64,000 nucleotides of DNA from an uncultured Candidatus Saccharibacteria bacterium (GCA_964383395.1 CAYLGV010000001.1:4031-68030); one strand, 5' to 3'; numbered from the stretch's first letter, positions 1-40,061 are shown. Made by a program: numbers and translations. Notes: generated by a model not told the origin, from the sequence alone.

Positions 1-1130
1 AGCAGATCCTGAAAGAGTTTACCGAGGTGCTGGGTGCTCTCGTGAGCTTTTTCTAAGTAACTCCTAGCCTTACTATCAATGCGCGTAACTTTGTCATTTA
101 AGGCCAAGGCAAGATAGCCTTCAATAGCTGCCACAGGCGTACGCATCTCGTGGCTAGCAGTACTAATAAAATCAGCTCGTCGATGTTCCTCACTACGTTG
201 TTCACTGACATCACGTATCACAGCTACGGCACCCACCGACTCATTTGTTTTCGGTAGGATAACTGGCGAAATAACCAAGGACACAATCTTGCTGTCGGCC
301 TTCGTTTTATTAACGAGTTGCAGAATACTTGTTACCGTCTTGCCTTCTTCAATCACGGTATGAAAGGGATTTTCTTCATTAGTTAACTCTTTGCCGTCTT
401 CATGATTGAACTTGAGTACTAGCTGCACGTCGATGTTAGTAGCCTCGTCGATAGCCCAACCAGTCATAGTGGCCGCTGCGGGGTTAAACAGGCTAATTTT
501 GCCCTCTACGTCGGTCACAACCACACCATCAGTGATAGACTGCAGTAAAATCTCGGCTTGTTGCTGGTTGCTCTTGAGCGCACCAGATAGTTTGGCAATT
601 TGCACATTCACGCGGTCAACATACATGCGCCGCCAAATGAAATACGTAGCCCCACCCCAGGCATAACTAACCGCCAAGAAGACAATGTTCAGCCCATCAA
701 CAGTAACTTGCCCCCGGCTATTAGTCATGAGAAGCATAAAGTACATAGTGATGAGAACCTCAAAACTGAGGACCATATAGCCACCAAACATGCCGCCAAA
801 GAACAAAAGCGTGAGCCAGAGGATTCCAAATGGTGAGTGTAGTTGACCAGTGCTGTTTACGAAGTTAATACATAGCAGCATGATTATCAGGTGAAGCCCG
901 AAGGTGGCCATTCGACGTTCGTAACGTTGCACAAAGCGTTCATAGAAAAATGCCCTGAAAATTACGGCAGTCGCTGAAACCACTAGGGCTACCGAGTTAA
1001 AGCCATAATGGTCCAAATGCTTGAACGGTGCTACAAACAATGCCAATAGGCAGATAACAAGTGTGACACCAGCAATAATCGTGAGTATCCAGCAATAAAG
1101 CTTATACCAAGATTCTTTTACGGACTGCAT
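1..1130 (-). CDS. Membrane-bound PAS-domain sensor histidine kinase, C-terminal part cut off by the window edge
   Basis: I translated the minus strand from ATG 1130-1128; it is absent from the ORF track because no stop lies inside the window. It reads MQSVKESWYKLYCWILTIIAGV..., with several hydrophobic segments, a PAS-like middle part, and the H-box ASHEMRTP encoded at 158-135. Confidence 0.8.
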   Translation of the reverse strand, partial: MQSVKESWYKLYCWILTIIAGVTLVICLLALFVAPFKHLDHYGFNSVALVVSATAVIFRAFFYERFVQRYERRMATFGLHLIIMLLCINFVNSTGQLHSPFGILWLTLLFFGGMFGGYMVLSFEVLITMYFMLLMTNSRGQVTVDGLNIVFLAVSYAWGGATYFIWRRMYVDRVNVQIAKLSGALKSNQQQAEILLQSITDGVVVTDVEGKISLFNPAAATMTGWAIDEATNIDVQLVLKFNHEDGKELTNEENPFHTVIEEGKTVTSILQLVNKTKADSKIVSLVISPVILPKTNESVGAVAVIRDVSEQRSEEHRRADFISTASHEMRTPVAAIEGYLALALNDKVTRIDSKARSYLEKAHESTQHLGKLFQDL

Positions 1131-1295
1131 TTCGTCAATAACCCACCAGGCTGTATGTTAGTTGCTTACGCTTATCTGTTGGCTAGTATACAGGCTTGTC
1201 TCTGTTTTGACGAGATATTGACTGGACGCGCCATCCCTGTTGTGGTAAGATTTTCTCTTGTCTGGATACAGTGTTAAATCTCGTTCCATACGCGT

Positions 1296-1371
1296 GGCCC
1301 CGTCGTCTAGTGGTTAGGATATCTGGTTCTCATCCAGAAGATCGCGGGTTCGAATCCCGCCGGGGTCACCA
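1296..1371 (+). tRNA. tRNA-Glu (anticodon CUC), CCA encoded
   Basis: Hand-folded cloverleaf. Acceptor GGCCCCG pairs with CGGGGTC. Anticodon stem TCTGG/CCAGA carries loop TTCTCAT. T-arm is GCGGG-TTCGAAT-CCCGC, followed by discriminator A and CCA. Confidence 0.85.
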
Positions 1372-1378
1372 CGAAAAT

Positions 1379-1403
1379 AGCTCAGCGAAAGCTGGGCTTT
1401 TTT
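1379..1403 (+). terminator. Intrinsic terminator after tRNA-Glu
   Basis: Hairpin AGCTCAGC-gaaa-GCTGGGCT followed by a T run. Confidence 0.6.
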
Positions 1404-1410
1404 CGTGGTG

Positions 1411-1512
1411 GTTCTCTCGAGAACCGAACCCGCAGGGTTCGATCTTCGAGGACGCGCGCAGGTGCTCGCACCGAGCACGCCGCAAGAAGTAATCATCCCT
1501 CCAGGGTCACCA
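1411..1512. repeat. Repeat M1: ~77-nt core plus an 18-nt copy of the tRNA-Glu 3' end
   Basis: The sequence GTTCTCTCGAGAACCGAACCCGCAGGGTTCGATCTTC...GCAAGAAGTAATCATCCC recurs at 2674-2766 and, degenerate, at 6931-7008. Its tail ATCCCTCCAGGGTCACCA (1495-1512) matches tRNA-Glu 1354-1371 at 16 of 18 positions. Confidence 0.8.
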
Positions 1513-1527
1513 AGACGCTAATGCTTA

Positions 1528-1559
1528 AATACTTCTCTTTTGGAGAAGTATTTTTATTT
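1528..1559 (+). terminator. AT-rich hairpin with T tract just upstream of the nucleotidyltransferase gene
   Basis: AATACTTCTC-ttttg-GAGAAGTATT followed by TTTATTT. It could terminate an M1-containing transcript or act as a leader structure. It overlaps a possible -35/-10 pair (TTGGAG, 16-nt spacer, TAACAT, then 6 nt to ATG 1574). Confidence 0.45.
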
Positions 1560-1573
1560 GATAACATTTACAT

Positions 1574-2119
1574 ATGAACGAGACTGATACAAATAATCCC
1601 GAAAAACAAATGAGCTCACATGATGTCGTCTCTTTAATACAGCTTTGTGAAGAAAACGCTATCGAAGTCTATATAGATGGAGGCTGGGGTGTTGATGCAC
1701 TACTCGGCCAACAAACTCGCCAGCATGGTGACCTTGATATTGCTTTACCGCACAAACAAGTCCCTGTGTTACGTGCCCTGCTTGAAACAAGGGGTTATCG
1801 TGAAGTGCCACGTGATGATACGCGAGACTGCAACTTTGTCCTTGGTGATGACAATGGTCATGAAATTGATCTTCATTCATATACATTTGACGACCAAGGT
1901 AATAACGTATTTGGCGTAGCATATGAGCCGAGGCATTTAACTGGAACCGGCAGCATTAATGGTTACCCAGTAAAATGCATACCCGCAGATGTAATGATAG
2001 AGTTTCATCAAGGTTATGAAGTAGATGTCGATGATTACCATGACGTACGGGCTCTTTGCGATAAGTTTGGGTTTGAATTACCTGCCATTTACGAGAAGTT
2101 TGAAACGAAAGAGTTGTAA
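1574..2119 (+). CDS. Aminoglycoside-2''-adenylyltransferase (AadB/ANT(2'')) family nucleotidyltransferase
   Basis: 181-aa ORF. The N-terminal IDGGWGVDALLGQQTRQHGDLDIALP resembles the AadB signature GGGWAIDARLGRVTRKHDDIDL. The substrate cannot be read from the sequence. Confidence 0.7.
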   Translation: MNETDTNNPEKQMSSHDVVSLIQLCEENAIEVYIDGGWGVDALLGQQTRQHGDLDIALPHKQVPVLRALLETRGYREVPRDDTRDCNFVLGDDNGHEIDLHSYTFDDQGNNVFGVAYEPRHLTGTGSINGYPVKCIPADVMIEFHQGYEVDVDDYHDVRALCDKFGFELPAIYEKFETKEL

Positions 2120-2166
2120 ATAGCTAGGAAGAAAGCAAACGCCGCCACCGCAAAAACTCATCATAT

Positions 2167-2200
2167 ATGGGCGCTAAACTTTCAGGTGTTAGGTCACCAA
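2167..2200. repeat. 34-nt direct repeat, copy A (ATGGGCGCTAA...GTTAGGTCACCAA)
   Basis: 25 of 34 positions are identical to 2639-2672 by hand alignment. Its 3' end GGTCACCAA matches the tRNA-Glu and M1 tail. Confidence 0.6.
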
Positions 2201-2236
2201 TTGATTAACACATGTATTTATGTTATAGTTTGATTA
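2201..2236 (+). promoter_or_regulatory. Sigma70-type promoter placed for a leaderless transcript of the 2237 ORF
   Basis: TTGATT (2201-2206), 17-nt spacer, TATAGT (2224-2229), then 7 nt to ATG 2237. There is no Shine-Dalgarno sequence. Confidence 0.5.
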
Positions 2237-2557
2237 ATGAGTATACGAAAATCTGAATTTGTACCTGTTGTTCCTCCTGAGGAGCATCCTTACATGCATC
2301 ATCTTTATGCACGTACTGGGCTCGAATTAACGAGTGAAGCGGATGTAGTCTTGGCAGCCGCACACAGGAAGTGGAGCTCAGGATCAGAAGTTGAAGACCG
2401 CGTTGAAGTGGCAGAGTTACTATTAGGTCGAAGAATAGATGGTCAAGAGCTACATACTTTGCCAGTAGCATTTGGTTTACATATCTTCCATCCAGAAGAT
2501 TTTGACGGATTATTGAATATTGTTTCGCGAATTGCCGAAACTGAGCATGGTCAGTAA
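2237..2557 (+). CDS. Hypothetical protein (106 aa)
   Basis: ORF with a promoter-like signal directly upstream. Its N-terminal motif SEFVPVVPPEEHP resembles GFVPAIPPEEP in the 3431 ORF. Confidence 0.55.
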   Translation: MSIRKSEFVPVVPPEEHPYMHHLYARTGLELTSEADVVLAAAHRKWSSGSEVEDRVEVAELLLGRRIDGQELHTLPVAFGLHIFHPEDFDGLLNIVSRIAETEHGQ

Positions 2558-2638
2558 TTCCAGACAGTAAATGTCCTGTTTATAGCCACATTACAACTAG
2601 AATTTAGGATCTTTTGCCATCGTCTGAATTCACTGTAA

Positions 2639-2672
2639 ATGGGTGCTAATAATTCGTCGGTTAGGTCACTAA
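2639..2672. repeat. 34-nt direct repeat, copy B (ATGGGTGCTAA...GTTAGGTCACTAA)
   Basis: Matches 2167-2200. It abuts repeat M2. Confidence 0.6.
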
Positions 2673-2673
2673 A

Positions 2674-2766
2674 GTTCTCTACGAGAACCGAACCCGTAGG
2701 GTTCGATCTTCAAAAGCTCTCACAGGAGCTCCCTCCGAGAAAGCTTGCAGAAGTAATCATCCCGCC
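2674..2766. repeat. Repeat M2 (~93 nt)
   Basis: The 5' 37 nt are near-identical to M1 and the 3' end GCAGAAGTAATCATCCCGCC is shared. The central hairpin differs in sequence but still folds. Confidence 0.8.
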
Positions 2767-2774
2767 AAAAACGA

Positions 2775-2810
2775 TTGACACTAGCGCACTAGTATGCTAG
2801 TATATAGCCT
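2775..2810 (+). promoter_or_regulatory. Promoter of the trpR-like gene overlapped by three CTAG boxes (putative TrpR-family operator)
   Basis: TTGACA (2775-2780), 17-nt spacer, TAGTAT (2798-2803), then 7 nt to ATG 2811. CTAG starts at 2781, 2789 and 2797, an exact 8-bp phasing. Confidence 0.55.
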
Positions 2811-3062
2811 ATGTCAAACTTTAATGACGTAACCGATATTATCTACACCACTCGAGACAAAGGGCTGCTTGAGGACTTTCTTGTTGGTCTTACAACCGAC
2901 AAAGAACGTGCCGAACTGGCTCAACGAGTAGAAATCATTAAGCGATTAATTGCGGGTGAACCGCAAGCTAAAATCGCCAGTGATTTAGGAGTTGGTATTG
3001 CGACGGTTACTCGTGGCTCAAAGGCGTTGAGCCAAGGTCACTTTAAGGCTTTGAGGAAATAA
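2811..3062 (+). CDS. TrpR-related YerC/YecD family DNA-binding protein
   Basis: 83 aa. The segment EPQAKIASDLGVGIATVTRGSKAL is a TrpR-type helix-turn-helix. Size and layout fit the YerC/YecD family. Confidence 0.7.
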   Translation: MSNFNDVTDIIYTTRDKGLLEDFLVGLTTDKERAELAQRVEIIKRLIAGEPQAKIASDLGVGIATVTRGSKALSQGHFKALRK

Positions 3063-3064
3063 TA

Positions 3065-3133
3065 ATGACTAACTTACATATTAGGCAGCAGAACACTTGG
3101 TGGAACTCGCGTTATATATGGGAGTCTATTTGA
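3065..3133 (+). CDS. Trp-codon-rich leader peptide (trpL-like), 22 codons
   Basis: I read ATG ACT AAC TTA CAT ATT AGG CAG CAG AAC ACT TGG TGG AAC TCG CGT TAT ATA TGG GAG TCT ATT TGA. Tandem TGG codons lie at 3098-3103 and a third TGG at 3119-3121. GAGG (3053-3056) sits 8 nt upstream of the ATG. Confidence 0.7.
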   Translation: MTNLHIRQQNTWWNSRYIWESI

Positions 3134-3161
3134 CGTACTAAATTGTAAATAAGCAAATAAT

Positions 3162-3184
3162 CGCCTCCCATCTGGGAGGTTTTT
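3162..3184 (+). terminator. Attenuator terminator between the leader peptide and the trp structural genes
   Basis: Stem CCTCCC (3164-3169) pairs with GGGAGG (3174-3179), followed by TTTTT (3180-3184). The 5' arm can instead pair with ATGGGAG (3118-3124) inside the leader ORF. Confidence 0.7.
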
Positions 3185-3203
3185 AATATTAAGGAGAAAT
3201 ACT

Positions 3204-3434
3204 ATGAATGAACATTATGAACAAAGAGTGCCTGAGTACCGCCAGGCGTTTGAATCGATCTGCCAAGAATTTGGATCAGCGAAGGTCGTAGAACTACTGG
3301 TGGCCTGTTTTGGCGAAGAACCAACAGGATATGCCCTAGAAAAGCTTGGAGTAGCGGGCGTAATGCCTGGCATTCAACTCGTACACGTCTACGGAAGAAA
3401 TCGTAATTTTGAATATATAGGAGAACAATCATGA
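3204..3434 (+). CDS. Hypothetical protein (76 aa), first gene after the attenuator
   Basis: AAGGAG ribosome-binding site 8 nt upstream. Its stop overlaps the next start (ATGA). Confidence 0.6.
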   Translation: MNEHYEQRVPEYRQAFESICQEFGSAKVVELLVACFGEEPTGYALEKLGVAGVMPGIQLVHVYGRNRNFEYIGEQS

Positions 3435-3988
3435 GTGAAACAATGCAACCACGTAACGGAGATGAACGGAGAGACCGGATAATGGATATTCGAGAGCGTA
3501 AAGGTCACTTACTTGGACGAGGGATCATCGTGAGCAGCGGTAACCCTGGTTTCGTGCCAGCTATACCACCGGAGGAACCTCTGAAGTACAGCACACCTTA
3601 CATCGACAAAGATGGGAAACCTGCGTATAAGTATCGCGGCAAGCCAACTAGCTCTATTCGTACGCTACCAGCTGACCAAAGTGAATTTGTAAGGACAAGG
3701 AATAGGCATAGCGCTGAGGGGTGTGGGCGAACTGCTTTGAGCACTGCCGTAGAGCGTCAGCAAATAATGATTGCCGAGGACTTAGCTTACGAGCAACAGA
3801 CTAGTGAGGAGGCTCGAGCTAATCGACTTAATCGCTACTTAGAGCTTCTTGGAGACGGAACGGCTCTACTGGATGAGGCTGCTGTGGATGAGCTCAATGG
3901 CCTCGCTCATGAATTCCATATGCCACGTGACTATATAGAAGCGTGTCAGATTATGGATGCGGGAGGTGTGAGTTATGGCATCTGCTAA
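3431..3988 (+). CDS. Hypothetical protein (185 aa)
   Basis: Translationally coupled on both sides, with a 4-nt overlap upstream and a 14-nt overlap with trpB. I recognised no family. Confidence 0.6.
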   Translation: MSETMQPRNGDERRDRIMDIRERKGHLLGRGIIVSSGNPGFVPAIPPEEPLKYSTPYIDKDGKPAYKYRGKPTSSIRTLPADQSEFVRTRNRHSAEGCGRTALSTAVERQQIMIAEDLAYEQQTSEEARANRLNRYLELLGDGTALLDEAAVDELNGLAHEFHMPRDYIEACQIMDAGGVSYGIC

Positions 3989-5189
3989 CATGTTTTACGG
4001 CAAGTACGGGGGCCGTTATGTGCCCGAAATGCTTCAGCCAGCTTTGACTGAACTAGCTGAAGCATATGACAAGCTCAAGAAGGATCCTGATTTCCGAGCA
4101 GAGCTTAAGGAGTTACAAACCAAGTACAATAACCGCCCTACACCACTGGTACATGCCCAAAGCCTGACTGCTCAACTTGGTGGAGCGCAGATATACCTCA
4201 AGAACGAAGGTATGAATCATACAGGTGCACATAAGATTAACCATTGTCTTGGGCAGGCGCTTGTTGCCCGTAAATTGGATAAGAAGCGTCTTATCGCCGA
4301 GACTGGCGCTGGGCAGCATGGTGTGGCAACCGCCACAGTAGCAGCACGCCTGGGATTTGAGTGCACGATTTATATGGGCGCGCTTGATATGGACCGCCAG
4401 CGACCAAACGTACTCCTCATGGAATTACTGGGTGCTGAAGTCATTCCGGTTACTTTTGGTGCACGTACACTCAAAGATGCAGTCAGTGCTGCGATGAAAG
4501 ACTACCTGCAGAATTCAGACACGACACACTACGTGATTGGATCATGCCTCGGGCCTGATCCCTACCCGCGCATGAATCGTGATTTCCAAGCTATTATTGG
4601 TAAGGAGATACGACAGCAACTCGATAGAATACCAGATTACGTTGTTGCCTGTGTGGGCGGAGGTAGCAATGCACTTGGTGCTTTTACCGAGTTTTTGAAA
4701 GATCGAAATGTTACGCTTATTGGCGTTGAGGCTGGTGGTAAGGGCAAAAAACTTGGCGAGCATGCAACACGTTTCCCTGCGGCAAAATCAGGTATCGTGG
4801 AGGGCTACAAGTCGTACTTCTTGCAAGACGCAGATGGTAATACTGCCAAAACACATAGCATTGCTGCCGGGCTTGACTATATTGGGGTTGGCCCAGAGTT
4901 AGCTGCTCTACATGACCAGGGTCGAGTGGAGTTTACTCGAGCAAGTGACAAGGAAGCGCTCGCTGCTGTTAAGTTCCTAGCCCAGACTGAGGGCATTATT
5001 CCGGCTCTCGAATCTGCTCATGCTGTTGCTCACGCAATAAAGATTGCACCTAGACTACCGACAGACACGACTATAGTGGTTAATGTTTCTGGGCGTGGTG
5101 ATAAGGATTTGTTTACCCTTGCTCGTGCTTTCGATGCAAAAAACTTTTCTACATTCTTACAAAACGAGGTACAACACTATGAAAAATAA
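3975..5189 (+). CDS. trpB: Tryptophan synthase beta chain
   Basis: 404 aa. Contains GGRYVPE, NEGMNHTGAHKINH (PLP lysine region) and ETGAGQHGVATA. GGAGG lies 8 nt upstream. Confidence 0.92.
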   Translation: MASANMFYGKYGGRYVPEMLQPALTELAEAYDKLKKDPDFRAELKELQTKYNNRPTPLVHAQSLTAQLGGAQIYLKNEGMNHTGAHKINHCLGQALVARKLDKKRLIAETGAGQHGVATATVAARLGFECTIYMGALDMDRQRPNVLLMELLGAEVIPVTFGARTLKDAVSAAMKDYLQNSDTTHYVIGSCLGPDPYPRMNRDFQAIIGKEIRQQLDRIPDYVVACVGGGSNALGAFTEFLKDRNVTLIGVEAGGKGKKLGEHATRFPAAKSGIVEGYKSYFLQDADGNTAKTHSIAAGLDYIGVGPELAALHDQGRVEFTRASDKEALAAVKFLAQTEGIIPALESAHAVAHAIKIAPRLPTDTTIVVNVSGRGDKDLFTLARAFDAKNFSTFLQNEVQHYEK

Positions 5190-5934
5190 GATCATGACAC
5201 ATGTTGTGGCGGGTTACCCAAACCTAGAGGATTGCTTGGCTTTAATGCTAGAAATGCAAGATGCGGGTGTTCATGCGATTGAGGTGCAGATCCCTTTCAC
5301 TGACCCAATAGCAGACGGTGAAACAATCATGAAGGCCAACGATATTGCATTGACTAATGGCGTGACAATAGAAAGTTGTTTCGGGCTCATTCTGGCTGCC
5401 CGCAATGCAGGCTTAATGGTGCCGATCTACATCATGAGTTATGTGCACAAAGTGGCACATGTGGGCTTTCAAGAGTTTTGCGAGCAAGCAAAACAATGTC
5501 AGGCTGATGGTCTGATCATTCCTGACCTCCCTGCTAGCATGCCGGAGTTTAAGGCGTTGTTAAAACAGTGTGCTCAGTTCAAACTTGACCTGGTTCCTGT
5601 ACTATCGCCCGGCATGGCTGATGCCAGGCTTAAAGCGTACAAGTCGCAGTCTACGGACTTTGTGTACGTTACAAGCGGCAGAGGTATTACGGGAAATAAG
5701 CTGGCGCTTGACCCAGAGCTTACGCAGCTCGTTGAACACGTACGATCGGAGATATTATGTGATGTCGCGTTGGGTTTTGGTATCCAGAGTCAACTTGATG
5801 TTAAGAAAGCACTTGAAATTGCTGATATCGCAGTCGTTGGCAGCGCAGTTATTCGTGAGATTGAGCAGCGTGGAGTCAAAGGTGCTGCTGCATTTGTAAA
5901 ACAACTAATTAAGAAAACAGATCATGACAACTAA
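5179..5934 (+). CDS. trpA: Tryptophan synthase alpha chain
   Basis: The track ORF starts at 5083, but GAGG plus ATG 5179 overlapping the trpB stop gives MKNKIMTHVVAGYPNLED...IEVQIPFTDPIADGETI, which is TrpA-like. Confidence 0.85.
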   Translation: MKNKIMTHVVAGYPNLEDCLALMLEMQDAGVHAIEVQIPFTDPIADGETIMKANDIALTNGVTIESCFGLILAARNAGLMVPIYIMSYVHKVAHVGFQEFCEQAKQCQADGLIIPDLPASMPEFKALLKQCAQFKLDLVPVLSPGMADARLKAYKSQSTDFVYVTSGRGITGNKLALDPELTQLVEHVRSEILCDVALGFGIQSQLDVKKALEIADIAVVGSAVIREIEQRGVKGAAAFVKQLIKKTDHDN

Positions 5935-6925
5935 AAAACGAATTCTAACAGGTGATCGGCCAACAGGAAAACTGCACCTTGGGCACTATCTCGGTACATT
6001 AGAAAACCGGGTACGGCTTCAAGATGAGTATGAGACCTACATAATGGTGGCAGATGTTCAGGCACTGACAGACAACTTTGACAACCCTAAAAAGGTTCGT
6101 GAGAGTGTCTATGAGGTTGCACTTGATAACTTGGCTGTGGGGCTTGATCCTCAAAAGTCAGTTTTGTTTGTGCAGTCCCAGGTACCGGAACTGACTGAGT
6201 TAACGGTGTACTTCATGAACCTCATTAGTCTTGAGCGATTGCAACGCAACCCAACGGTTAAAGCAGAGATGAAGCAGAAAGGTTATGGTGGTAACGTTCC
6301 GGTAGGATTCGTGAACTATCCCCTGTCACAGACGGCTGATATCTTGGCCTTTAATGCTGATCTTGTTCCTGCTGGCAACGATCAGGCGCCTATGTTGGAA
6401 CTGAGTCGCGAGATTGTTGCGAAGTTTAAGAACATTTACGGCTATACCTTCCGGATGCCTGAGATTGTAGTCGGTCGAGTAGCCCGCCTGGTTGGTACTG
6501 ACGGCAATGCAAAGATGAGTAAGAGCCTCGGTAATGTGATCTACTTGTCAGATCCCGAGGAGGTTGTAACTAAGAAAGTAATGGCAATGTACACCGATCC
6601 AAGCCGAAAACATGCAACCGATCCAGGCAAAGTTGATGGCAACCCAGTCTTCATATACCTGGATGCTTTCGGTAAAGACATATCAATTATTGATGAGTTG
6701 AAGCAACGCTATGCTGCTGGCACGGTTGGTGATGTTGAGGTAAAACAGTACTTGGCAGCGGTTCTCAACGAGTTCCTGGGCCCTATTCGTGAACGACGCC
6801 ATTACTATGAAGCGCGACCCGAACTTGTTGCAGAAATTCTAAGAGAAGGAACGCTTAAGGCGAGAAGTACGGTAGCCAAGACAATGCAGGATGTTCACAG
6901 TGCAATGCAGCTCTATCAGTTTTAG
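5924..6925 (+). CDS. trpS: Tryptophanyl-tRNA synthetase
   Basis: 333 aa class I aaRS. HIGH-type motif KLHLGHYLG and KMSKS are present. Overlaps the trpA end by 11 nt. Confidence 0.92.
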   Translation: MTTKKRILTGDRPTGKLHLGHYLGTLENRVRLQDEYETYIMVADVQALTDNFDNPKKVRESVYEVALDNLAVGLDPQKSVLFVQSQVPELTELTVYFMNLISLERLQRNPTVKAEMKQKGYGGNVPVGFVNYPLSQTADILAFNADLVPAGNDQAPMLELSREIVAKFKNIYGYTFRMPEIVVGRVARLVGTDGNAKMSKSLGNVIYLSDPEEVVTKKVMAMYTDPSRKHATDPGKVDGNPVFIYLDAFGKDISIIDELKQRYAAGTVGDVEVKQYLAAVLNEFLGPIRERRHYYEARPELVAEILREGTLKARSTVAKTMQDVHSAMQLYQF

Positions 6926-6930
6926 ACAAG

Positions 6931-7008
6931 AGGGGTCCCGATTCACCCGCAAGGCTTGGAGCAGATCTACTCACACTAAAATCATCCGCAAGAAGTTATT
7001 ATCGCCCA
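6931..7008. repeat. Repeat M3, a degenerate and shorter copy of M1/M2
   Basis: CACCCGCAAGG...GATCT...CCGCAAGAAGTTATTATCGCCC aligns with ACCCGCAGGGTTCGATCT...CCGCAAGAAGTAATCATCCCTCC of M1, including an 11-nt exact CCGCAAGAAGT. Confidence 0.5.
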
Positions 7009-7024
7009 GCCACAACTCAACTAA

Positions 7025-7061
7025 TTGACCAAACACCCATTTAGTTGTATTGTAACCAAAT
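7025..7061 (+). promoter_or_regulatory. Promoter with a very short or absent leader for the 7062 ORF
   Basis: TTGACC, 17-nt spacer, TATTGT, then 8 nt to ATG. Confidence 0.45.
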
Positions 7062-7586
7062 ATGGCAGACGTGGAAAAATCACCGCTTGTGTTCCCCTTT
7101 GAAGCTCAATATGTTGACGCAGCACTTGCTATGGGCAGAGAGGATCAAGAACGGCTAAGAAAAGAAGAAGTTTCATGGTTACAGGAAAATAGTTCCTACC
7201 TCTACGCTCTCTTCTGTGGAGATTTTGCTAAGGTTATAGAGTTATCTGGCATAGATACAGGCAATGCATATTGGGCAGGTCGAGCCATGGGTAACCGGGC
7301 AATCCGACTCTTCTTGGATGATCACACCGAGCTTGACTATGAAGCGTTGGCGACACAGTATCGTGCAAATGTTGAAGTAGACAATAGGCGTCTAGGTGAT
7401 CGTGAGAATCCCACACGTGTAGTTCCCTGGAAGTCGCATGAGATCTTGACCGACTTGTTTGGTGACGAGAGAATTGCAGGAGCACTCACAAAAGTACGCC
7501 ATGAAACGGCACGCGAAACTGCTGCAATCACCATCGCCTTCTATTGTCTCTCGGATATCCCTGAATCTGCCTACGCTAACGTATAA
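7062..7586 (+). CDS. Hypothetical protein (174 aa)
   Basis: Long ORF with a promoter signal upstream. No recognisable motif. Confidence 0.6.
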   Translation: MADVEKSPLVFPFEAQYVDAALAMGREDQERLRKEEVSWLQENSSYLYALFCGDFAKVIELSGIDTGNAYWAGRAMGNRAIRLFLDDHTELDYEALATQYRANVEVDNRRLGDRENPTRVVPWKSHEILTDLFGDERIAGALTKVRHETARETAAITIAFYCLSDIPESAYANV

Positions 7587-7596
7587 TGTGAGCGAA

Positions 7597-8118
7597 ATGC
7601 CTGCTCCAATCTACACAATCAACCTCCCACAATATCAGGTAGAAACTGAACCTGACGATGAAGCAATTGGTGCTGTTATTGATGCAGAAATTAAAAAGCA
7701 CTTTTTGGGTAAATCAATTCTGATAAGAGGTGTGGCTTCAAGCGAACATCCCACCAAGACACGGGACGAGCTAGTAGAAATAATTACTAGTAATGGGACA
7801 GATCGATATGATCCGAATCGTGCCGGTGATCGTTATGAAAATGTTGAAGGCAAGCAGATTGATCTATTTGCTTTTCACTACAAAGTAGAAGCCGCAACTA
7901 AGCTTACGCAACCGCTCATTTGGGGTTTTTATCACAGCTCTCTTGGTATTCATGGTAAGCCGATGAGAATCGATGTCATCACTATCTACGATGTCGAACA
8001 AATGAACCAAATTACTCACCGTTACGAAGGCCGCGATGATGTTAAAGATGATGGCTTCACTTTCAGGTATCCCCAGAATAAGCTCGATGCTTTACAGGCA
8101 GTATTTGTACTCAACTAA
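7597..8118 (+). CDS. Hypothetical protein (173 aa)
   Basis: The track ORF begins at 7459 and overlaps the previous gene. ATG 7597 (MPAPIYTINLP...) is in the same frame and lies just after the upstream stop. Confidence 0.55.
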   Translation: MPAPIYTINLPQYQVETEPDDEAIGAVIDAEIKKHFLGKSILIRGVASSEHPTKTRDELVEIITSNGTDRYDPNRAGDRYENVEGKQIDLFAFHYKVEAATKLTQPLIWGFYHSSLGIHGKPMRIDVITIYDVEQMNQITHRYEGRDDVKDDGFTFRYPQNKLDALQAVFVLN

Positions 8119-8132
8119 CTATTCAGAGAAAA

Positions 8133-8834
8133 CTATTTCCTCAACTGATATACTTCGCCTGTTGCAACTACGTTATGTTTGTTAATGAGTGCCTTCAGTA
8201 GCTTAATAATAGCAGCCGTCTTCTGTGTCCCAACTGCCTCATTTGCTTCAATATAGAGGTTTGCCCAGTGGTTATCAATTGTTTGTAGATTAGCTTCAAC
8301 TTGTCTCGGTTTTGCCATCCAGCGTTGCTTTAATTTATAAAAACTCTCAATGGCGGTCACCAGAGCTCCATTTTGAAGATAGTAGCCAGGGACAGAAAGC
8401 TCTCCGAGTGACTCTAGATCGTCAATAAGAGTGCGTATAACATATCCAAGTATTGCAAGGGCCTCATCATCAAGCTTTGGAGGCCCAGCTGTATATATTT
8501 GCTGTGCTTTAGATTGGACGTCAGCTAAGCGCCCATGTGAGTCAAACACGATAGTTCCTGTAGCGAGCATATTCAATGCTGGATTTGAAATCTTTGAGGT
8601 GACAAGTTCATTCTCGTTAATGCTTGCGAGCGTATTGCAAAATGTCTCAATATGAGTGTTCCCATGTATCCAGGTTCTTCGGAATGATTTTGACTCATTG
8701 CTTAGTAATACATAGAAATCCCAGTCGCTTGTGGTTGTTGCAGAACCTTGTTGGCGGCTACCGGTATACAAAATACCATCACAGCCTTCGATTGCCTTCA
8801 CTTTATTGAGAATATCGTTTGGAATGTCTTGCAT
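8133..8834 (-). CDS. Nucleotidyltransferase-fold protein (KNTase/ANT-like architecture)
   Basis: GSRQQGSATTTSDWDFYVLL fits the GS...DxD minimal NTase motif, followed by a helical C-terminal domain. The start is set at the internal Met (MQDIPNDIL). Confidence 0.55.
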   Translation of the reverse strand: MQDIPNDILNKVKAIEGCDGILYTGSRQQGSATTTSDWDFYVLLSNESKSFRRTWIHGNTHIETFCNTLASINENELVTSKISNPALNMLATGTIVFDSHGRLADVQSKAQQIYTAGPPKLDDEALAILGYVIRTLIDDLESLGELSVPGYYLQNGALVTAIESFYKLKQRWMAKPRQVEANLQTIDNHWANLYIEANEAVGTQKTAAIIKLLKALINKHNVVATGEVYQLRK

Positions 8835-8978
8835 AACGTCATTGTAACAGATCGAAGTCTGTTCCTCTGAAGGGACAATTAAGGCAGCCAGGGTGGGTTT
8901 GTGATCACGGACCAGGCCGATGATAAGTATCAAAAACGATGGCTACGAAAGACAGATGATGTACATGTAATTGAGTAT

Positions 8979-9860
8979 CTAGCGACTGTAAGGTTCGATT
9001 TCGGCTTGAGCACCTGCTCGAGTGATCTTACCCTGCTCGTCAATCCTAGAAATTAACTCACTTGCCTTGCCCATGTCGCCTTTTATAGCGGCATTTTCGG
9101 CACGGTACTGTAGCCAATAATCAACTTCATCGTGAGCCGTGACTTTTGTGGTTTTGCCCTCATCGTCTATTGTTTCAACAAGTACTAAAGCTTCGTCAAA
9201 GTCGCTTTTTTCTGCTTTAGATTTGGCACCATAACTAACCCAATACTCAACTTCGTCGCGTGCAGCAACCGTTTCTTCTTCAGTTGCACCTGCTAGGTGG
9301 TCAACGATGTCGTAAGCGGCACCGAAATCTTTCTCGTCCTTTGCCAAGTTTTCTGCGGTAAAAGCTTGCCAGTATCGCGCATCACTGCCGTAGGCTGCTT
9401 TAGTTTGAGGGTTTGAAATAGAGTTCAACAATGTATTTGAAGTGGAGATTTCACCGGCAAAGGCAGCACATGTAGCCTTTAAGCCTGCCTGAGCACCCTC
9501 TGGATCAGCGAGAAATTCATCAGGATGTACTAGAATGCCCTTTTCGGTGTCAGTGCCTATCTGGCGTTTGATGCTCTCATATTGGAGCTTGGCGCCTGCA
9601 AGATCGTTGTTAATAGCAAGCTTTTGGGCGTAGTCTTCAGCATCTGCTAGTTTCTCGGCTTCAGTTTTAGGTTGGGTCGTAGTTGATGGATCGTAGATGA
9701 GACCTAGATCACCCACTAGCATGCCACAATCTTTTGAGGTAATGTCTTCGGGAGCTATGGTGTCACGGGCATGCATTGGGGCTTGCTCGCCAATGCCACA
9801 GGCCGAACCACCTACCAAAATTGCACCTGTCATAGCTAAACCACGTAATACGTTTCCCAT
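8979..9860 (-). CDS. Lipoprotein with degenerate ~40-aa repeats
   Basis: MGNVLRGLAMTGAILVGGSAC forms a lipobox. The C-terminal half repeats DEVEYWVSYGAK... and DEVDYWLQYRAEN... Confidence 0.6.
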   Translation of the reverse strand: MGNVLRGLAMTGAILVGGSACGIGEQAPMHARDTIAPEDITSKDCGMLVGDLGLIYDPSTTTQPKTEAEKLADAEDYAQKLAINNDLAGAKLQYESIKRQIGTDTEKGILVHPDEFLADPEGAQAGLKATCAAFAGEISTSNTLLNSISNPQTKAAYGSDARYWQAFTAENLAKDEKDFGAAYDIVDHLAGATEEETVAARDEVEYWVSYGAKSKAEKSDFDEALVLVETIDDEGKTTKVTAHDEVDYWLQYRAENAAIKGDMGKASELISRIDEQGKITRAGAQAEIEPYSR

Positions 9861-9947
9861 ACATCTCCCAAAAACCTTAATTATTCGATATATTATACAT
9901 TTATTACAACAAAAAGTCAACTATATCCTGATCGCAGCGTAGTCTTA

Positions 9948-10613
9948 CTACTCATCAAGCATACGAATATACTTCAAAACCCGCTTCGGTCTTAGGATCG
10001 TCTCATCGACAACTGTTCCAGCATGGGCGAAGTGTTTCGGTTCAATAAGGATAAACTTCTTATGTTTCTTGGCTTCCTCGCGAACATCCTCGACATCAAC
10101 CAGCTGATCTTTGAGGGGAAAAACCATGACCATTGACGCGTGATCAAGCGAGCCTGGATTGCTATACATATTCACTGGCTTCCAGATTTCTGCCAATTCA
10201 TCATAGCTCTGGGGCCACTGTTCTTTCGTAGAAAGCCGCAAGACAGCTTTGACGATATCTCCACCAGTTATAAACACTGCCCTATTGAACCGCGTATCTC
10301 GCCGTACTATGTTTAACGCAATGAGGCCGCCAAGGCTAAATCCAATAACAAGCACAGGTTGATTTACTCCTTCCTGATATGCGACTGCTAAGTTATAAAC
10401 CTCGTCTATAAGTCCAGGCAACATTGAGGGGTCCCCGGTCGAGAGCGTCTCAGCAGTATGATCAACGACTTTTACGGCGTAGCCGTCACGCATAAGTGTG
10501 CGTATCAAGCGTTTTGTTTGCCAAACCTTGCCGCCATGACCACAGATAACCAGCACATACTTAGGATTAGGCTTATCGAAACCATAGTCTTTCACGGTTG
10601 TTACGTATTTCAT
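9948..10613 (-). CDS. Alpha/beta hydrolase
   Basis: GFSLGG nucleophile elbow. The 221-aa size and motif order are typical. Confidence 0.6.
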   Translation of the reverse strand: MKYVTTVKDYGFDKPNPKYVLVICGHGGKVWQTKRLIRTLMRDGYAVKVVDHTAETLSTGDPSMLPGLIDEVYNLAVAYQEGVNQPVLVIGFSLGGLIALNIVRRDTRFNRAVFITGGDIVKAVLRLSTKEQWPQSYDELAEIWKPVNMYSNPGSLDHASMVMVFPLKDQLVDVEDVREEAKKHKKFILIEPKHFAHAGTVVDETILRPKRVLKYIRMLDE

Positions 10614-12968: not shown

Positions 12969-14288
12969 TTATGGATGTATGACGACTTGGGGCAGCTCGG
13001 CGAGGTTCGTAGTGTAGCGCGGACTACGCTGGTTATAAATGGGGCGCCATTGCTGCCCCAGGGCTTGGGTAGCAAAACGGATAGTGTGTTTGCCATAGGT
13101 TTCGTTAAGTGTATCTATGCTGACCATGCGGGCTCGGGCTCGGTCGTGGTCTTTCGGGTTGGCTTCGTTTAAGAGATCGAGCTGCAGATCGCCGGCTGGC
13201 AGAAAGTCGTATAGCATGACACCAGCACGGTGGTAGGACTGGTTGGGGTGGTAGAGCTGATTAAGCTCCTTTACCAAGGTGTGAATAAGATGGCCTGTAT
13301 CGGCCGTCGGAACACGGTAGGTAATTTCTTTGAACCACCGTCGGTAGCCTGGCTTGAATCGGTTATTGGTTAAAAATAGGGCTGCTCGTTTAGTTACCTG
13401 TCCACTGGTGCGCAGTCGAAAGGCGGCTTGGGTGGCAAAGGTGGCGATAGCGGCTTCCAGAGAGTCAAGATCGTTGGTATCGTGCCCAAAGGTGCGAGTG
13501 CGAGCGATACTTTTACGTATCTTCCCTTCACGATCGAGCGGATAGCAGGATAAGCCGTTCAACTCAGCTATTAGTTGTCGGCCACGGATACCCATGAGCT
13601 GCTGGGCATGTTTAGGCTGCAACTGGGCAAGCTGTTGGGCATTTGTGATGCCTTCGGCGCGCATTTTGGGCGCAAAGCGCCAGCCAATCCCCCATACGTC
13701 TTGAACGGGGACTGCCTCTAGGTGATGACGAGTGACCTGAGCTGACTCACTATAAAGGTTTAATACGCCCCCAAGTTCGGGGTCTTTTTTGGCTCGCTCA
13801 CTAGCTAACTTGGCCAATGTTTTGGTAGGCGCGATGCCAATTGAAACAGGTATACCAACCCATTTCCAAACAGCTTCACGTACTTGCTCTCCCCAGGCGG
13901 CATAGTCTTCGATGCGGAGTTCCTGTAAATCTAGGAATGATTCGTCTACAGAGTAGACCTCAATTCGTGGTGTTACGGATGTGAGTAGTTCGGTGATGCG
14001 GCGTGAAATGTCTCCGTAGAGGTCAAAATTGGCGCTAAACTGCACAACGCCGTGTTGCTTGAAAATCTCACGGTACTTGAAGGCTGGAGCGCCCATAGGT
14101 ACACCAAGCGCTTTAACTTCATTACTGCGGGCGACTGCACAGCCGTCATTGCTGCTTAATACGACCACAGGGGTTGTTAGTAGGTCTGGCCGGAAAACGC
14201 GCTCACAGCTTACGAAGAAGTTATTGCAGTCAATGAGCGCAAAAATCGGTGGTCTTTTTGCAGCTGAGTCATTGGAATTCGTTGACAC
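12969..14288 (-). CDS. umuC: Y-family translesion DNA polymerase (UmuC-like)
   Basis: IFALIDCNNFFVSCERVFRPDL...VVVLSSNDGCAVARSNEVKALGV and YSVDESFLDL retain the catalytic acidic residues. Confidence 0.88.
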   Translation of the reverse strand: MSTNSNDSAAKRPPIFALIDCNNFFVSCERVFRPDLLTTPVVVLSSNDGCAVARSNEVKALGVPMGAPAFKYREIFKQHGVVQFSANFDLYGDISRRITELLTSVTPRIEVYSVDESFLDLQELRIEDYAAWGEQVREAVWKWVGIPVSIGIAPTKTLAKLASERAKKDPELGGVLNLYSESAQVTRHHLEAVPVQDVWGIGWRFAPKMRAEGITNAQQLAQLQPKHAQQLMGIRGRQLIAELNGLSCYPLDREGKIRKSIARTRTFGHDTNDLDSLEAAIATFATQAAFRLRTSGQVTKRAALFLTNNRFKPGYRRWFKEITYRVPTADTGHLIHTLVKELNQLYHPNQSYHRAGVMLYDFLPAGDLQLDLLNEANPKDHDRARARMVSIDTLNETYGKHTIRFATQALGQQWRPIYNQRSPRYTTNLAELPQVVIHP

Positions 14289-14290
14289 CG

Positions 14291-14635
14291 CTAGCTCGCG
14301 GCACCTTCTCGATACTGGTGGATGGTTGCTGTAACGCTCCCCCAGACTTCGGCATGCTCGGGGATCTTATGTTTCGGTGAGAGTGCAAACTGGCCATCTT
14401 TAACCCAGACTGCGGGGTCGTTACCACACGGGGAGAGCGCACGGTCCACCAGTAGCATATCGCCAGCAAAGATTCCCTGTTTACTCCACTCATTGCCAGC
14501 GATCCGCATCATATAGGTGCTGGTAGTATGTTGAATAAGTAACTGATTTAAATCGATTCCTTGTAGTGAGCTATCAGTGGCTGGGTTGGGGAAGCCATCG
14601 TGCACCGATACTCCGCTAGGGTTGTTGTAATACAT
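14291..14635 (-). CDS. umuD: UmuD'-like protein lacking the Ser-Lys dyad
   Basis: [28 protein letters not shown] aligns with E. coli UmuD [28 protein letters not shown]. GDSM is replaced by GNEW and the K97 position by Ser. Confidence 0.75.
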   Translation of the reverse strand: [114 protein letters not shown]

Positions 14636-14792
14636 CGTCGAACTCCTTCTTTGTAATATTGCTTGCTTTTCGTCGCCAAAATCGCCAACGTCGCCACTGG
14701 GCTTGCCAGATGTCTGGATAACTCCCTTTCGGCAGGTCGTAAAGCGGCGTGGCGAGAGGTGTCTCTATGAAGAGTGGATCGTCGGCGTTCAT
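14616..14792 (-). CDS. Small ORF (58 aa), Trp/Arg-rich, coupled between the Y-family fragment and umuD'
   Basis: My translation is MNADDPLFIETPLATPLYDLPKGSYPDIWQAQWRRWRFWRRKASNITKKEFDDVLQQP. It has an ATGA overlap with the upstream ORF and overlaps the umuD' start. It is below the ORF-track size cut-off. Confidence 0.3.
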   Translation of the reverse strand: MNADDPLFIETPLATPLYDLPKGSYPDIWQAQWRRWRFWRRKASNITKKEFDDVLQQP

Positions 14793-15022
14793 GATTTGCG
14801 TCCCCCGTACAGTAGGATACGTAAATCAGGGAGTAATAGCTGTGCCTCTGCCACCCGCATGCCAGCAGTAATACCGAGGTTGCGGGCTTCTTTAGAAACG
14901 GCCGTGATAACTGCTTGATTAAAACGTTTTATGCGCCGATGTCGGAGCCCCGGTTGGTAGGCAGCAAACGCCCAGGAGTGTTTGATTTGTTCTTTGGTAG
15001 CGATGTTCATTGTAAGTTGCAT
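14789..15022 (-). pseudogene. Y-family polymerase/ImuB-like N-terminal fragment (77 aa)
   Basis: AVITAVSKEARNLGITAGMRVAEAQLLLPDL matches the conserved N-terminal block of Y-family polymerases. The catalytic block and the rest of the protein are absent. It may be a remnant or a small accessory protein. Confidence 0.35.
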
Positions 15023-15075
15023 AGTAATTCCTTTCAGTTAGTTGTAGGTACGTTATCGTGACCTAAAGGTCACGT

Positions 15076-15318
15076 TTATAGGACCCGGCTGCTTAAAAGT
15101 GTCCAGGTGCGGCTGCCTGGCTCAAAGCTTAGGCGGTATAGCTTGTCGCCGTCCGTCATGTTAAAGATCTGGACTAATTCCTGCCCTTTTTGCACCAAGC
15201 AGCGCAGGCCGTTTTGTAGAAAGCTAAGCTCCCTGCCCTCGACTTCGATTTGGCTGGGAAAACAGTGCTTCTGATCAAAGTAAAAAGCAGTGACATTAAC
15301 TTCGGTGTTGTGAGACAT
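15076..15318 (-). CDS. Hypothetical protein (80 aa), first gene of the umu operon
   Basis: AAGGAG lies 7 nt upstream of ATG 15318 (MSHNTEVNV...). The track ORF extends further upstream. Confidence 0.5.
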   Translation of the reverse strand: MSHNTEVNVTAFYFDQKHCFPSQIEVEGRELSFLQNGLRCLVQKGQELVQIFNMTDGDKLYRLSFEPGSRTWTLLSSRVL

Positions 15319-15661
15319 ATACGACTCCTTTAAAGGATTTAGGGATAAATAAAGAGTCAACTGAGACAAAATGTTCAGCTGGAACGGGTTAGAAGAGGCT
15401 TTCTGGTAGACTCGTGGGGCCGTTCACCCAGGAGCAATTTATAGAGAGCTATTGTCGTATATGTGAGGCGCGCAGGGACCGCAGTGTGCTTGCCTAGTCG
15501 TGTAATAAAGCTTGAAAACGATGGCCGTTTTGCCGGGCTGGCGAAACTGGCTCATGCTCCCATAGCTGCTCTTAGTATAGTCACTCAAAGCGCTCGTGGT
15601 CAATGCTTGAATGATGTGCTTTTTGTCACAACCTGGTTACTGTAACTGAACCAGCAGTAGG

Positions 15662-16120
15662 TTATTTATTGAGCTGCAGCTGATCCAGGAACGTGGCTAA
15701 TTCTTTGGGTGTAATCTCGGCTTTCACAATGTAGCCATCGGCTTGGGCCTCGATAGCGTTGCGGCTTTCTTCGCCAAGCTCGAGATTGGTAGTAACGATG
15801 ATCTTGGCACGTAAATTAGGCGTTTCACGTACATCCCGCAGGCGACGTAGGATCTCGGTCCCCGTTAGGTTGGGCAGCATGATATCGAGTAGGATGATAT
15901 CGTAGATATCGGCCTTAGATTTAGCCTCTTGGAGAGCATCTTGGCCGTCGATAACAACCTTAACGTTATAGCCAGCTTTAGTGAGAGAGCGAATGTACAA
16001 TTCACTAATAAAAGGCTCATCTTCGATAATGAGTACGTGCTTACTAGCGTTATCACGCGGGGCTGCGGTGGCATCCTGAGGTGGAGTTTGTTCTGATGGG
16101 GGTGTTTGGTTCTCGTCCAT
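15662..16120 (-). CDS. Single-domain (receiver-only) response regulator
   Basis: VLIIEDEPF...DIILLDIMLPNLTG...IIVTTN. No output domain is present. Confidence 0.85.
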   Translation of the reverse strand: MDENQTPPSEQTPPQDATAAPRDNASKHVLIIEDEPFISELYIRSLTKAGYNVKVVIDGQDALQEAKSKADIYDIILLDIMLPNLTGTEILRRLRDVRETPNLRAKIIVTTNLELGEESRNAIEAQADGYIVKAEITPKELATFLDQLQLNK

Positions 16121-16123
16121 TGG

Positions 16124-32401: not shown

Positions 32402-32402
32402 T

Positions 32403-39769: not shown

Positions 39770-40061
39770 AGTATTCCCAGATTAACACAACCAACACGAC
39801 GGAAGCGACGGCATACGCAAAATCTTCTATGGGTGCCCTGCCAATATACACGCCAAGAATGCGCGCAGTGTCGTAACCAACAATGCCAGCCGCAATAATA
39901 AGTGAGTCAAACAGGACGGTAAGTAACAGAATGGCTGAGAGGGTGAACCAGAACGGCTTTAAGATGTGATGTTTGTGCTTGGCTGGTATACGACGAAGCA
40001 ATATAAGACTTGCCAAGATAGTTCCAAGCAGTACTAAACCGTTCAATACCAGATAATTCAT
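39753..40061 (-). CDS. Lycopene-cyclase-domain small membrane subunit (CrtYd/CrtYf-like)
   Basis: 102 aa with 3 transmembrane segments. One of a pair of small subunits after crtI, with an ATGA overlap. Confidence 0.55.
   Translation of the reverse strand: MNYLVLNGLVLLGTILASLILLRRIPAKHKHHILKPFWFTLSAILLLTVLFDSLIIAAGIVGYDTARILGVYIGRAPIEDFAYAVASVVLVVLIWEYCENKR

Follow-up and report, generated by a model that had tools for sequence, protein, structure and literature searches.

A predicted tryptophan-starvation operon with a TrpR operator, a leader-peptide attenuator, and two conserved proteins of no described family in a likely Saccharibacteria-like bacterium

In Chlamydia trachomatis, a partner-dependent organism that encodes the last step of the tryptophan pathway alone, TrpR acts at its own promoter (PMC7755916, PMC6504234). 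Here, we analyzed a 64-kb stretch of DNA (the window) in which positions 2775–6925 form one tightly overlapping operon made up of a promoter/operator, trpR, a leader peptide, a terminator, two small genes that we call orf76 and orf185, trpB, trpA, and trpS. We found that the architecture of this operon is closest to that of C. trachomatis trpRBA and that its control logic is closest to that of E. coli TrpR plus TrpL. As in C. trachomatis, trpR lies upstream of trpB-trpA in one operon with a regulatory intergenic region in between, TrpR is predicted to act at its own promoter, the last pathway step stands alone in the locus, and dependence on a partner is probable. An initial annotation of the window had drawn the same parallel from the order regulator, leader, and trpBA, with which the architecture agrees, and had suggested a partner-dependent organism, which is probable since the only named relative is a Saccharimonadales metagenome-assembled genome (MAG). 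Unlike the chlamydial operon, the locus belongs to a different phylum, has a compact leader of 22 codons, a tandem Trp pair among them, together with a clean terminator/antiterminator, carries two extra conserved open reading frames (ORFs) before trpB and an appended trpS at the operon end, and encodes a TrpA without signs of degeneration. For the chlamydial operon, TrpL attenuation is reported to be absent or degenerate and TrpL itself to be atypical and probably non-functional, with YtgR taking its role (PMC7755916).

Like the double control of the E. coli trp operon, the locus combines a TrpR-family protein and CTAG boxes 8 base pairs (bp) apart with a TrpL-like leader in which tandem Trp codons precede four RNA segments that follow a 1:2/3:4 versus 2:3 logic. 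However, trpR would here be autoregulated inside the operon, whereas the E. coli gene is unlinked; the leader RNA lies outside the Rfam Trp leader; the antiterminator arm is built from the last Trp codon itself; and the structural genes are trpBA, trpS, and two ORFs without a known family. The locus also resembles the anti-TRAP gene (rtpA) and the T-box trpS of Bacillus in that a small protein would be induced by uncharged tRNA-Trp through a Trp-codon leader and expression of the tryptophanyl-tRNA synthetase (TrpRS) would rise upon tryptophan starvation, but it has no sequence or structural likeness to anti-TRAP, no T-box, and no TRAP, and orf185 tracks trpB rather than the regulatory cassette. 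What sets the locus apart is the presence of both controls in one autoregulated Patescibacteria-like operon, a non-Rfam attenuator, the appended trpS, and two conserved proteins without described relatives. In the literature that we searched, we came across no account that covers this regulation, the orf185 family, or a cargo-swapping locus of this kind.

Patescibacteria, including Saccharibacteria, are thought to obtain amino acids from the hosts on which they depend, and their ways of sensing and answering a shortage are poorly understood. The locus presents a complete and conserved tryptophan-sensing switch (TrpR operator plus leader-peptide attenuator) in such a lineage, reused with different cargo, and this switch gives a direct handle on the genes deployed under tryptophan stress. 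From the gene identities, the regulatory elements (in silico) and their conservation, the purifying selection, and the genomic association described below, we propose that the locus is probably one tryptophan-starvation operon, from a bacterium that is Saccharimonadales-like (Patescibacteria), in which the TrpR/attenuator switch would govern the output of TrpBA and TrpRS and orf185 would serve as an accessory partner of TrpB. The orf185 family has no known relatives and is tightly tied to trpB; should it modulate tryptophan synthase, which is among the best-studied enzyme complexes, it would be a new kind of partner.

Operon layout and regulatory elements

The gene identities, ORF coordinates, and overlaps given in the initial annotation were borne out by our ORF listing and profile searches. 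The features of the operon are as follows, with protein lengths in amino acids (aa):

2775–2806, + strand: trpR promoter and TrpR-type operator (sigma-70 match, CTAG boxes)
2811–3062, + strand: TrpR-family repressor gene, 83 aa (PF01371 match)
3065–3133, + strand: leader peptide ORF, trpL-like, MTNLHIRQQNTWWNSRYIWESI and a stop codon (sequence reading)
3105–3185, + strand: attenuator RNA with four segments (terminator scan, folding)
3204–3434, + strand: orf76, 76 aa, no family match
3431–3988, + strand: orf185, 185 aa, no family match
3975–5189, + strand: trpB, tryptophan synthase beta chain of the TrpB1 type (TIGR00263)
5179–5934, + strand: trpA, tryptophan synthase alpha chain, with its real start at 5179 (TIGR00262)
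5924–6925, + strand: trpS, tryptophan--tRNA ligase (TIGR00233)

In the profile searches, trpB scored 559 bits against TIGR00263 (cutoff, 392), trpA 177.5 bits against TIGR00262 (cutoff, 102), and trpS 284 bits against TIGR00233 (cutoff, 177). The trpB product matched TrpB chains in the PDB at 2e-149 and kept the HTGAHKIN, ETGAGQHG, GGGSNA, and SGRGDKD motifs, and the trpA alignment retained the catalytic E (IEV) and D (FTDP) along with the phosphate-site motifs GFGI and GSA. Consecutive genes from orf76 onward overlap by 4 nucleotides (nt) (orf76/orf185, an ATGA at 3431–3434), 14 nt (orf185/trpB, 3975–3988), 11 nt (trpB/trpA, 5179–5189, an overlap missing from the earlier list), and 11 nt (trpA/trpS, 5924–5934). 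The proposed coupling of orf76 and orf185 to trpBA held up when we turned to relatives, since the same order recurs in their contigs; with orf185 homologues 42–79% identical to that of the window in independent contigs, the arrangement is not due to chance. We also found that the proteins from TrpR to TrpRS contain no Trp in 1332 residues, whereas the remainder of the window has 1.22% Trp (P about 8e-8).

The region's best sigma-70 match (10/12, with a TG extension) consists of a −35 element TTGACA at 2775–2780, a 17-nt spacer, and a −10 element TAGTAT at 2798–2803. Three CTAG boxes at 2781, 2789, and 2797 form a predicted operator over the −35 and −10 elements, with an 8-bp spacing that we take to be that of the E. 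coli trp operator. Half-sites centred on CTAG at this spacing, overlapping the regulated promoter, are the arrangement sought for TrpR control. The 17-mer TACTAGTATGCTAGTAT occurs once in the window, at this site (0.16 occurrences expected), and is present at the same site upstream of trpR in 7 distinct related loci. The trpR product matched PF01371 (Trp_repressor) at 1e-15, with 58 bits against a cutoff of 27, and reached 50.1 bits against the TIGR01321 equivalog model, below its cutoff of 67.25; these profiles place it in the TrpR family without certifying it as an equivalog. In the alignment to E. coli TrpR structures, it retained the T..ER..RV..GIAT(V)TRGS motif, with LTTDKERAELAQRVEI...GVGIATVTRGS standing against LTPDEREALGTRVRI...GAGIATITRGS of the 1JHG/1TRO chains. 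We presume that these kept motifs correspond to the corepressor and DNA contacts of E. coli TrpR (T44, R54, and the helix-turn-helix GIATITRGS). Since the trpR ATG lies 7 nt after the −10 element in the window and 6–9 nt after it in all loci (including L002, L006, L007, L008, and L011), and no Shine-Dalgarno sequence precedes it at 2798–2813 in the window or at the equivalent positions in those five loci, the sequence suggests that the trpR mRNA is leaderless.

The attenuator of the initial annotation is real, and we located its leader ORF, terminator hairpin, and T-run:

3105–3112, + strand: segment 1, ACTCGCGT (as RNA, ACUCGCGU), just past the tandem Trp codons
3118–3124, + strand: segment 2, ATGGGAG, which holds the last Trp codon
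3165–3171, + strand: segment 3, CTCCCAT
3174–3180, + strand: segment 4, GGGAGG, followed by a U-run at 3181–3185
3163–3180, + strand: terminator stem-loop, a G+C-rich hairpin followed by a T-run to 3185

The 22-codon leader ORF begins three nucleotides after the trpR stop codon, and its ribosome-binding site (RBS), GAGGA, lies 7 nt upstream of its start, inside the last trpR codons. It has three Trp codons, a tandem pair at 3098–3103 and a single one at 3119–3121, and the pattern ...G(A/G)W(W/Q/R)xS(H/R)xxxWES(I/V)-stop is found in every related locus whose contig covers the region (20 distinct loci). In full-length minimum-energy folds, the 1:2 and 3:4 hairpins formed. When ribosome-covered RNA was masked with the A site on the first UGG and the untranscribed terminator arm (segment 4) was omitted, the 2:3 antiterminator formed in silico in 16 of 16 folded loci, at −9.4 to −18.7 kcal/mol; with the ribosome placed at the leader stop codon, the terminator alone remained in the fold. 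The pair that flanks CUCCC/GGGAG in the terminator differs among loci yet stays paired, as C-G, U-A, A-U, or G-U. Per-locus folding was used in place of covariation counting; a MAFFT alignment of the leaders had the terminator arms out of register. The locus has, in silico, the defining features of a ribosome-mediated TrpL-type attenuator, namely a Trp-codon leader with an RBS and a terminator opposed by an antiterminator. Because no Rfam family matches positions 1–10000 of the window at E up to 1, except for tRNA, we place this attenuator, which is predicted to act like TrpL, outside the curated Rfam Trp_leader family.

The orf76 and orf185 proteins and their gene contexts

Neither small protein belongs to a described family. 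For orf76, we found no match in Pfam, NCBIfam, PHROGs, PADLOC, PDB sequences or profiles, or Foldseek against the PDB; for orf185, there was none in Pfam, NCBIfam, PHROGs, PADLOC, PDB profiles, or Foldseek, and all 30 members of its family lack a Pfam match. The best Foldseek E-values against the PDB for the two AlphaFold models were 2.7 and 10. Both genes show low ratios of nonsynonymous to synonymous substitution rates (dN/dS, Nei-Gojobori), at 0.09–0.19 for orf76 and 0.08–0.17 for orf185, compared to 0.12 for trpR and 0.18 for trpA, from which we conclude that they are real genes under purifying selection. The two are not relatives of each other, as ruled out by hhalign (probability 0.2%). 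We also considered and rejected decayed versions of trpC, trpF, or trpG (no similarity, a predicted fold that is not a barrel, and dN/dS of about 0.1) and a toxin-antitoxin or defence pair (no PADLOC hit, and a position inside the trp operon that is constant across lineages).

The orf76 product is a small acidic protein predicted to form an all-helical bundle, with a predicted local distance difference test score (pLDDT) of 78 in the best of five models only. Its position is kept in six relatives (L002, L006, L008, L047, L049, and L052), so that it co-occurs with a fused or N-domain orf185 homologue in seven lineages, including that of the window (W in locus lists). Close relatives of orf185 amount to a handful among 5.8 billion protein clusters, and an exhaustive profile search of 1.84 billion representative proteins yielded 28 family members, among them stand-alone N-only and C-only proteins of 80–120 aa. 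By sequence, orf185 is a fusion of two separable domains and the founding member of a two-domain family that has no earlier description; the 4048 residues of this family include 1 Trp. The N domain (about residues 1–92) is basic, with an isoelectric point (pI) of 10.0, and carries the motif MSE..TGEER..RI.DIR.RKGHLLG...KYSVLV..YVYKG.P..SIRQ...SEF, while the C domain (about residues 93–185) is acidic, with a pI of 4.4, and carries AVERQQ.MLAE...RL.RYLELL...EFY.PR..EE..I.DAGG.TYG, which ends at the C terminus. The AlphaFold model has a predicted template modeling score (pTM) of 0.38 globally and is informative for the C domain alone, which is modeled as three helices with pLDDT 87–91; the N domain is a helix plus a hairpin and is otherwise a largely extended chain of low confidence. 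The last codons of orf185 hold the trpB Shine-Dalgarno sequence GGAGG and the trpB start (tATGg), with DAGGxxYG encoded as GAT GCG GGA GGT GTG AGT TAT GGC. Because this stretch contains both signals, the invariant C-terminal DAGGxxYG is, as read from the sequence, under a dual constraint of protein and trpB initiation.

The gene contexts of the family members in relatives of the window are as follows:

L002, L006, L008, and L049: trpR-leader-orf76-orf185-trpB-trpA-trpS, with orf185 49–79% identical to that of the window; L006 is cut within trpB
L052: order as in the window up to trpB, which is cut by an insertion sequence (IS) element; orf185 about 42% identical
L011: rpoA-rplQ-rplM-rpsI-...-(frameshifted racemase)-trpR-leader-NC fusion-trpB-trpA-trpS, a core-genome setting
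L012 and L051: C-only protein overlapping trpB
L048: 58-aa deletion variant overlapping trpB
L007 and L050: N-only protein, then an amino-acid racemase (TIGR00035), without trpBA
L047: decayed locus, trpR-orf76-N-only

In all ten distinct loci with trpB or a trpB remnant (the window, L002, L006, L008, L011, L012, L048, L049, L051, and L052), the C-domain ORF lies directly upstream of trpB and overlaps it. On the other side of the family, the N-domain-only members of L007 (1953–2930) and L050 (97–1102) stand directly before an Asp/Glu-type racemase (TIGR00035) under a Trp attenuator, and a frameshifted TIGR00035 racemase lies just upstream of trpR in L011 (2657–3341). The N-only forms and the placement of the racemase hint at a link between the racemase and tryptophan supply. 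In some relatives, the trp module adjoins mobile or defence genes, namely Replic_Relax, a serine recombinase, a Pycsar-like pair, IS1595, and an rve integrase. In L002, for example, the flanks of the module at 3870–9318 and 13586–16581 hold a Pycsar-like pair (PycTM plus cyclase), Replic_Relax, and a serine recombinase, suggesting a mobile or variable region. These flanks also hold a second TrpR-family gene (110 aa), divergent from hisG, an aminotransferase/phosphatase-domain gene, and hisD; the product of this TrpR-family gene is possibly a regulator of the partial his pathway.

We scanned metagenomes with a DNA pattern of the leader plus terminator and obtained 34 loci, of which 25 were chance matches without TrpR or a leader peptide. 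The other nine (L019, L020, L025, L035, L038, L039, L041, L044, and L045) are genuine further cassettes, each with a TrpR gene, an operator, and a homologous leader peptide, and trpB and the orf185 family, C domain included, are absent from all nine. Their cargo is as follows:

L025: 353-aa protein without assignment, NIF3, AstE/AspA-type hydrolase, trpS
L035 and L038: 865-aa protein with PPDK_N and phosphoenolpyruvate-utilising domains (rifamycin-phosphotransferase-like, Rph-like), histidine phosphatase, trpS; L038 is cut after the 865-aa gene
L020: DUF3182, AstE/AspA-like protein, trpS
L041 and L045: luciferase-like oxidoreductase, preceded by a 277-aa protein and followed by TIGR04076 in L041; L045 is cut within the oxidoreductase
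L039: aldo-keto reductase, TIGR04076-like protein
L019: 151-aa protein without assignment, then the contig end
L044: 111-aa ORF resembling the N terminus of the 277-aa protein of L041, with nothing recognisable after it

The cargo ends in trpS in L020, L025, and L035, the three contigs long enough, and in L025 and L035 this is a close orthologue of the window trpS behind other cargo. DNA conservation extends through the RBS and first codons (ATGAGTGAA) of the first cargo gene, which explains the recurrent "MSE" N termini. Since different cargo stands behind the same cassette, the set made up of trpBA, orf76, and orf185 represents one option among several cargoes. From these contigs, trpS looks like the constant or recurring terminal gene of a trpR-leader-(cargo)-trpS locus, and the cassette looks like a lineage-wide, cargo-swapping tryptophan-stress site.

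Proposed mechanism and competing explanations

We propose that, when tryptophan is plentiful, Trp-bound TrpR would occupy the three CTAG boxes over its own promoter, and transcripts that escape would end at the terminator because the ribosome passes through the leader and sits on segment 2. Under a shortage of charged tRNA-Trp, the ribosome would stall at the tandem Trp codons and mask segment 1, so that AUGGGAG, which includes the last Trp codon, could pair with CUCCCAU, the 5' arm of the terminator, and transcription would go on. Readthrough would then yield Trp-free orf76, orf185, TrpB, TrpA, and TrpRS through translational coupling. TrpBA would convert serine and indole to tryptophan, with indole-3-glycerol phosphate also usable if present, and additional TrpRS would improve charging. 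The acidic three-helix C domain of orf185 is a candidate accessory partner of TrpB, because of its strict, translationally coupled association with trpB and its absence from the cassettes without trpB; on these grounds, we infer a physical or functional interaction between orf185 and TrpB. It could stabilise or activate the beta subunit, capture indole, or restrain the serine-deaminase side reaction, which has been mentioned for chlamydial TrpBA (PMC7755916). The basic N domain would form a module of its own, found elsewhere alongside an amino-acid racemase, and orf76 would be a further lineage-specific small helical protein.

Several points weigh against this proposal. Some of the conservation at the C terminus (DAGGxxYG) is accounted for by bases that also serve as the trpB RBS and start, and one family member, the 58-aa deletion variant P0025, retains just the DAGGxxYG end. 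The PDB, Pfam, and Foldseek searches returned no sequence or structural similarity that would give a biochemical clue for orf76 or orf185. The orf185-trpB loci were found via orf185 homology, so that this sample is not independent of orf185. TrpA has intact motifs and looks catalytically competent, and it may use indole-3-glycerol phosphate; a full trp pathway may also lie outside the 64-kb window. Lastly, taxonomic placement draws on one named relative plus the pilin, sortase, and DUF3048 gene content. The sole match among GTDB species-representative genomes is a Candidatus Saccharimonadales MAG (L007), and the window's pilin, sortase, and DUF3048 genes are, we assume, typical of Saccharibacteria, which together make a Saccharibacteria-like origin likely.

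The substrate of TrpBA here is, by our inference, indole. The initial annotation had noted that trpE, trpD, trpC, and trpF are absent from the window, and this holds among ORFs of at least 95 aa: our Pfam scan found no trpE, trpG, trpD, trpC, or trpF and no chorismate-binding, glutamine amidotransferase (GATase), anthranilate phosphoribosyltransferase, indole-3-glycerol-phosphate synthase (IGPS), or phosphoribosylanthranilate isomerase (PRAI) domain in the scanned ORFs. The scan used concatenated pseudo-proteins plus single ORFs of at least 95 aa, with 7062–7586 scanned separately; ORFs of less than 95 aa and the 174-aa ORF at 32331–32855 were left out of it. Alternatively, the locus may not serve salvage at all and may instead be the trpBA-trpS part, plus lineage-specific small ORFs, of a complete but dispersed pathway. 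The kept catalytic Glu/Asp and phosphate-binding motifs of TrpA and the canonical TrpB1-type TrpB are in keeping with this, as is the fact that 64 kb of the genome were inspected. However, those 64 kb hold no trpEDCFG, the one named relative comes from Saccharimonadales, a lineage that to our knowledge generally lacks de novo amino-acid synthesis, and relatives carry the cassette with wholly different cargo beside mobile-element genes, which suggests an accessory, exchangeable trait. Moreover, trpA and trpB alone are reported in a minority (15–18%) of some Patescibacteria MAG sets (PMC8672522). We therefore regard a dispersed pathway as quite unlikely.

A different explanation is that orf76, orf185, or both are regulators rather than enzyme partners and exert positive feedback after the attenuator has opened, as anti-TRAP does in Bacillus; the acidic C domain might titrate TrpR as an anti-repressor, for example, and the basic N domain might bind leader RNA or tRNA. 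The proteins are indeed small, Trp-free, and directly behind the attenuator, the two domains have opposite charges (pI 10 and 4.4), the N domain is modeled mostly as a low-confidence extended chain, and Foldseek gives no enzyme-like fold. Yet a general cassette regulator would be expected in the nine cassettes without trpB, where the orf185 family is missing throughout; the C domain goes with trpB and the N domain with the racemase, suggesting cargo-specific roles; and the C domain of L012 has no adjacent trpR. A regulatory role is thus unlikely in our view. We consider it very improbable that the orf185 family has little function as protein and is a coupling ORF that brings ribosomes to trpB, with orf76 as filler or a decayed gene. 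Such an ORF would account for the most invariant motif, DAGGxxYG, which encodes GGAGG and then tATGg at the trpB start, and for the deletion variants P0013, P0018, and P0025, which keep the first few residues and the last part only, but not for a dN/dS of about 0.1 across the full length, for conservation of both domains as protein down to about 40% identity with a confident three-helix C domain, for N-only forms conserved before a different gene, or for the strong Trp depletion of the family.

Building on the proposal that orf185 assists TrpB, a bolder joint reading would make the C domain an obligatory TrpB partner, the N domain a partner of a PLP (pyridoxal phosphate)-independent amino-acid racemase, and trpR-trpL-(X)-trpS a cargo-swapping tryptophan-stress site; we hold all of this together to be doubtful. 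If it were true, the N-C fusion would be the sign of a new metabolic connection that ties a racemase to TrpB in epibiotic Patescibacteria, such as L-Ser supply from D-Ser or the handling of D-Trp. The swapped cargoes would then be alternative answers to poor tRNA-Trp charging, and the stresses might include host-made antibiotics that target TrpRS.

Surroundings of the operon

We also inspected the rest of the window for genes and repeats around the trp module. A gene at 59930–60970 (346 aa, Beta_elim_lyase) was considered as a tryptophanase, TnaA, and rejected, as it is too short and weakly resembles threonine aldolase/GntG; broad homology screens could mislabel it as a TnaA homologue. Directly after trpS, two ORFs at 7062–8118 (174 aa and 219 aa, overlapping as called) had no match in Pfam, NCBIfam, or PADLOC. 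Between a tRNA-Glu gene (1296–1371) and the trp module lies a gene of the aminoglycoside-2''-adenylyltransferase family at 1574–2119 (PF10706, 1.7e-28), which the Logan contig L001 carries as well. An 86-nt intergenic direct repeat at 1418–1503 and 2682–2767 has 79% identity between its copies, with a 27-nt core that is exact in both, and partial copies occur at 2148–2165 and 6986–7003. The first copy stands just after the tRNA-Glu gene and ends in GGGTCACCA, like a tRNA 3' end, while the second lies just upstream of the trpR promoter. A search for island boundaries at tRNA-Glu turned up this repeat and no clear att pair; the repeat copies may be what is left of junctions, of a cassette or an island, around the ANT(2'')-like gene and the trp module.

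The window also holds gltX, umuC/umuD-like genes, a two-component pair, a sortase, type IV pilins, a MacB-type ABC transporter, an RND/MMPL-like transporter, carotenoid-type genes, a DEAD-box helicase, and many NUDIX, GNAT, and nucleotidyltransferase genes. The carotenoid-type block, at 38343–42733, comprises a NUDIX gene (IPP-isomerase-like), a UbiA prenyltransferase, two small lycopene-cyclase-domain genes, a phytoene desaturase-like gene, and a phytoene synthase, and is unusual in a reduced Patescibacteria-like genome.

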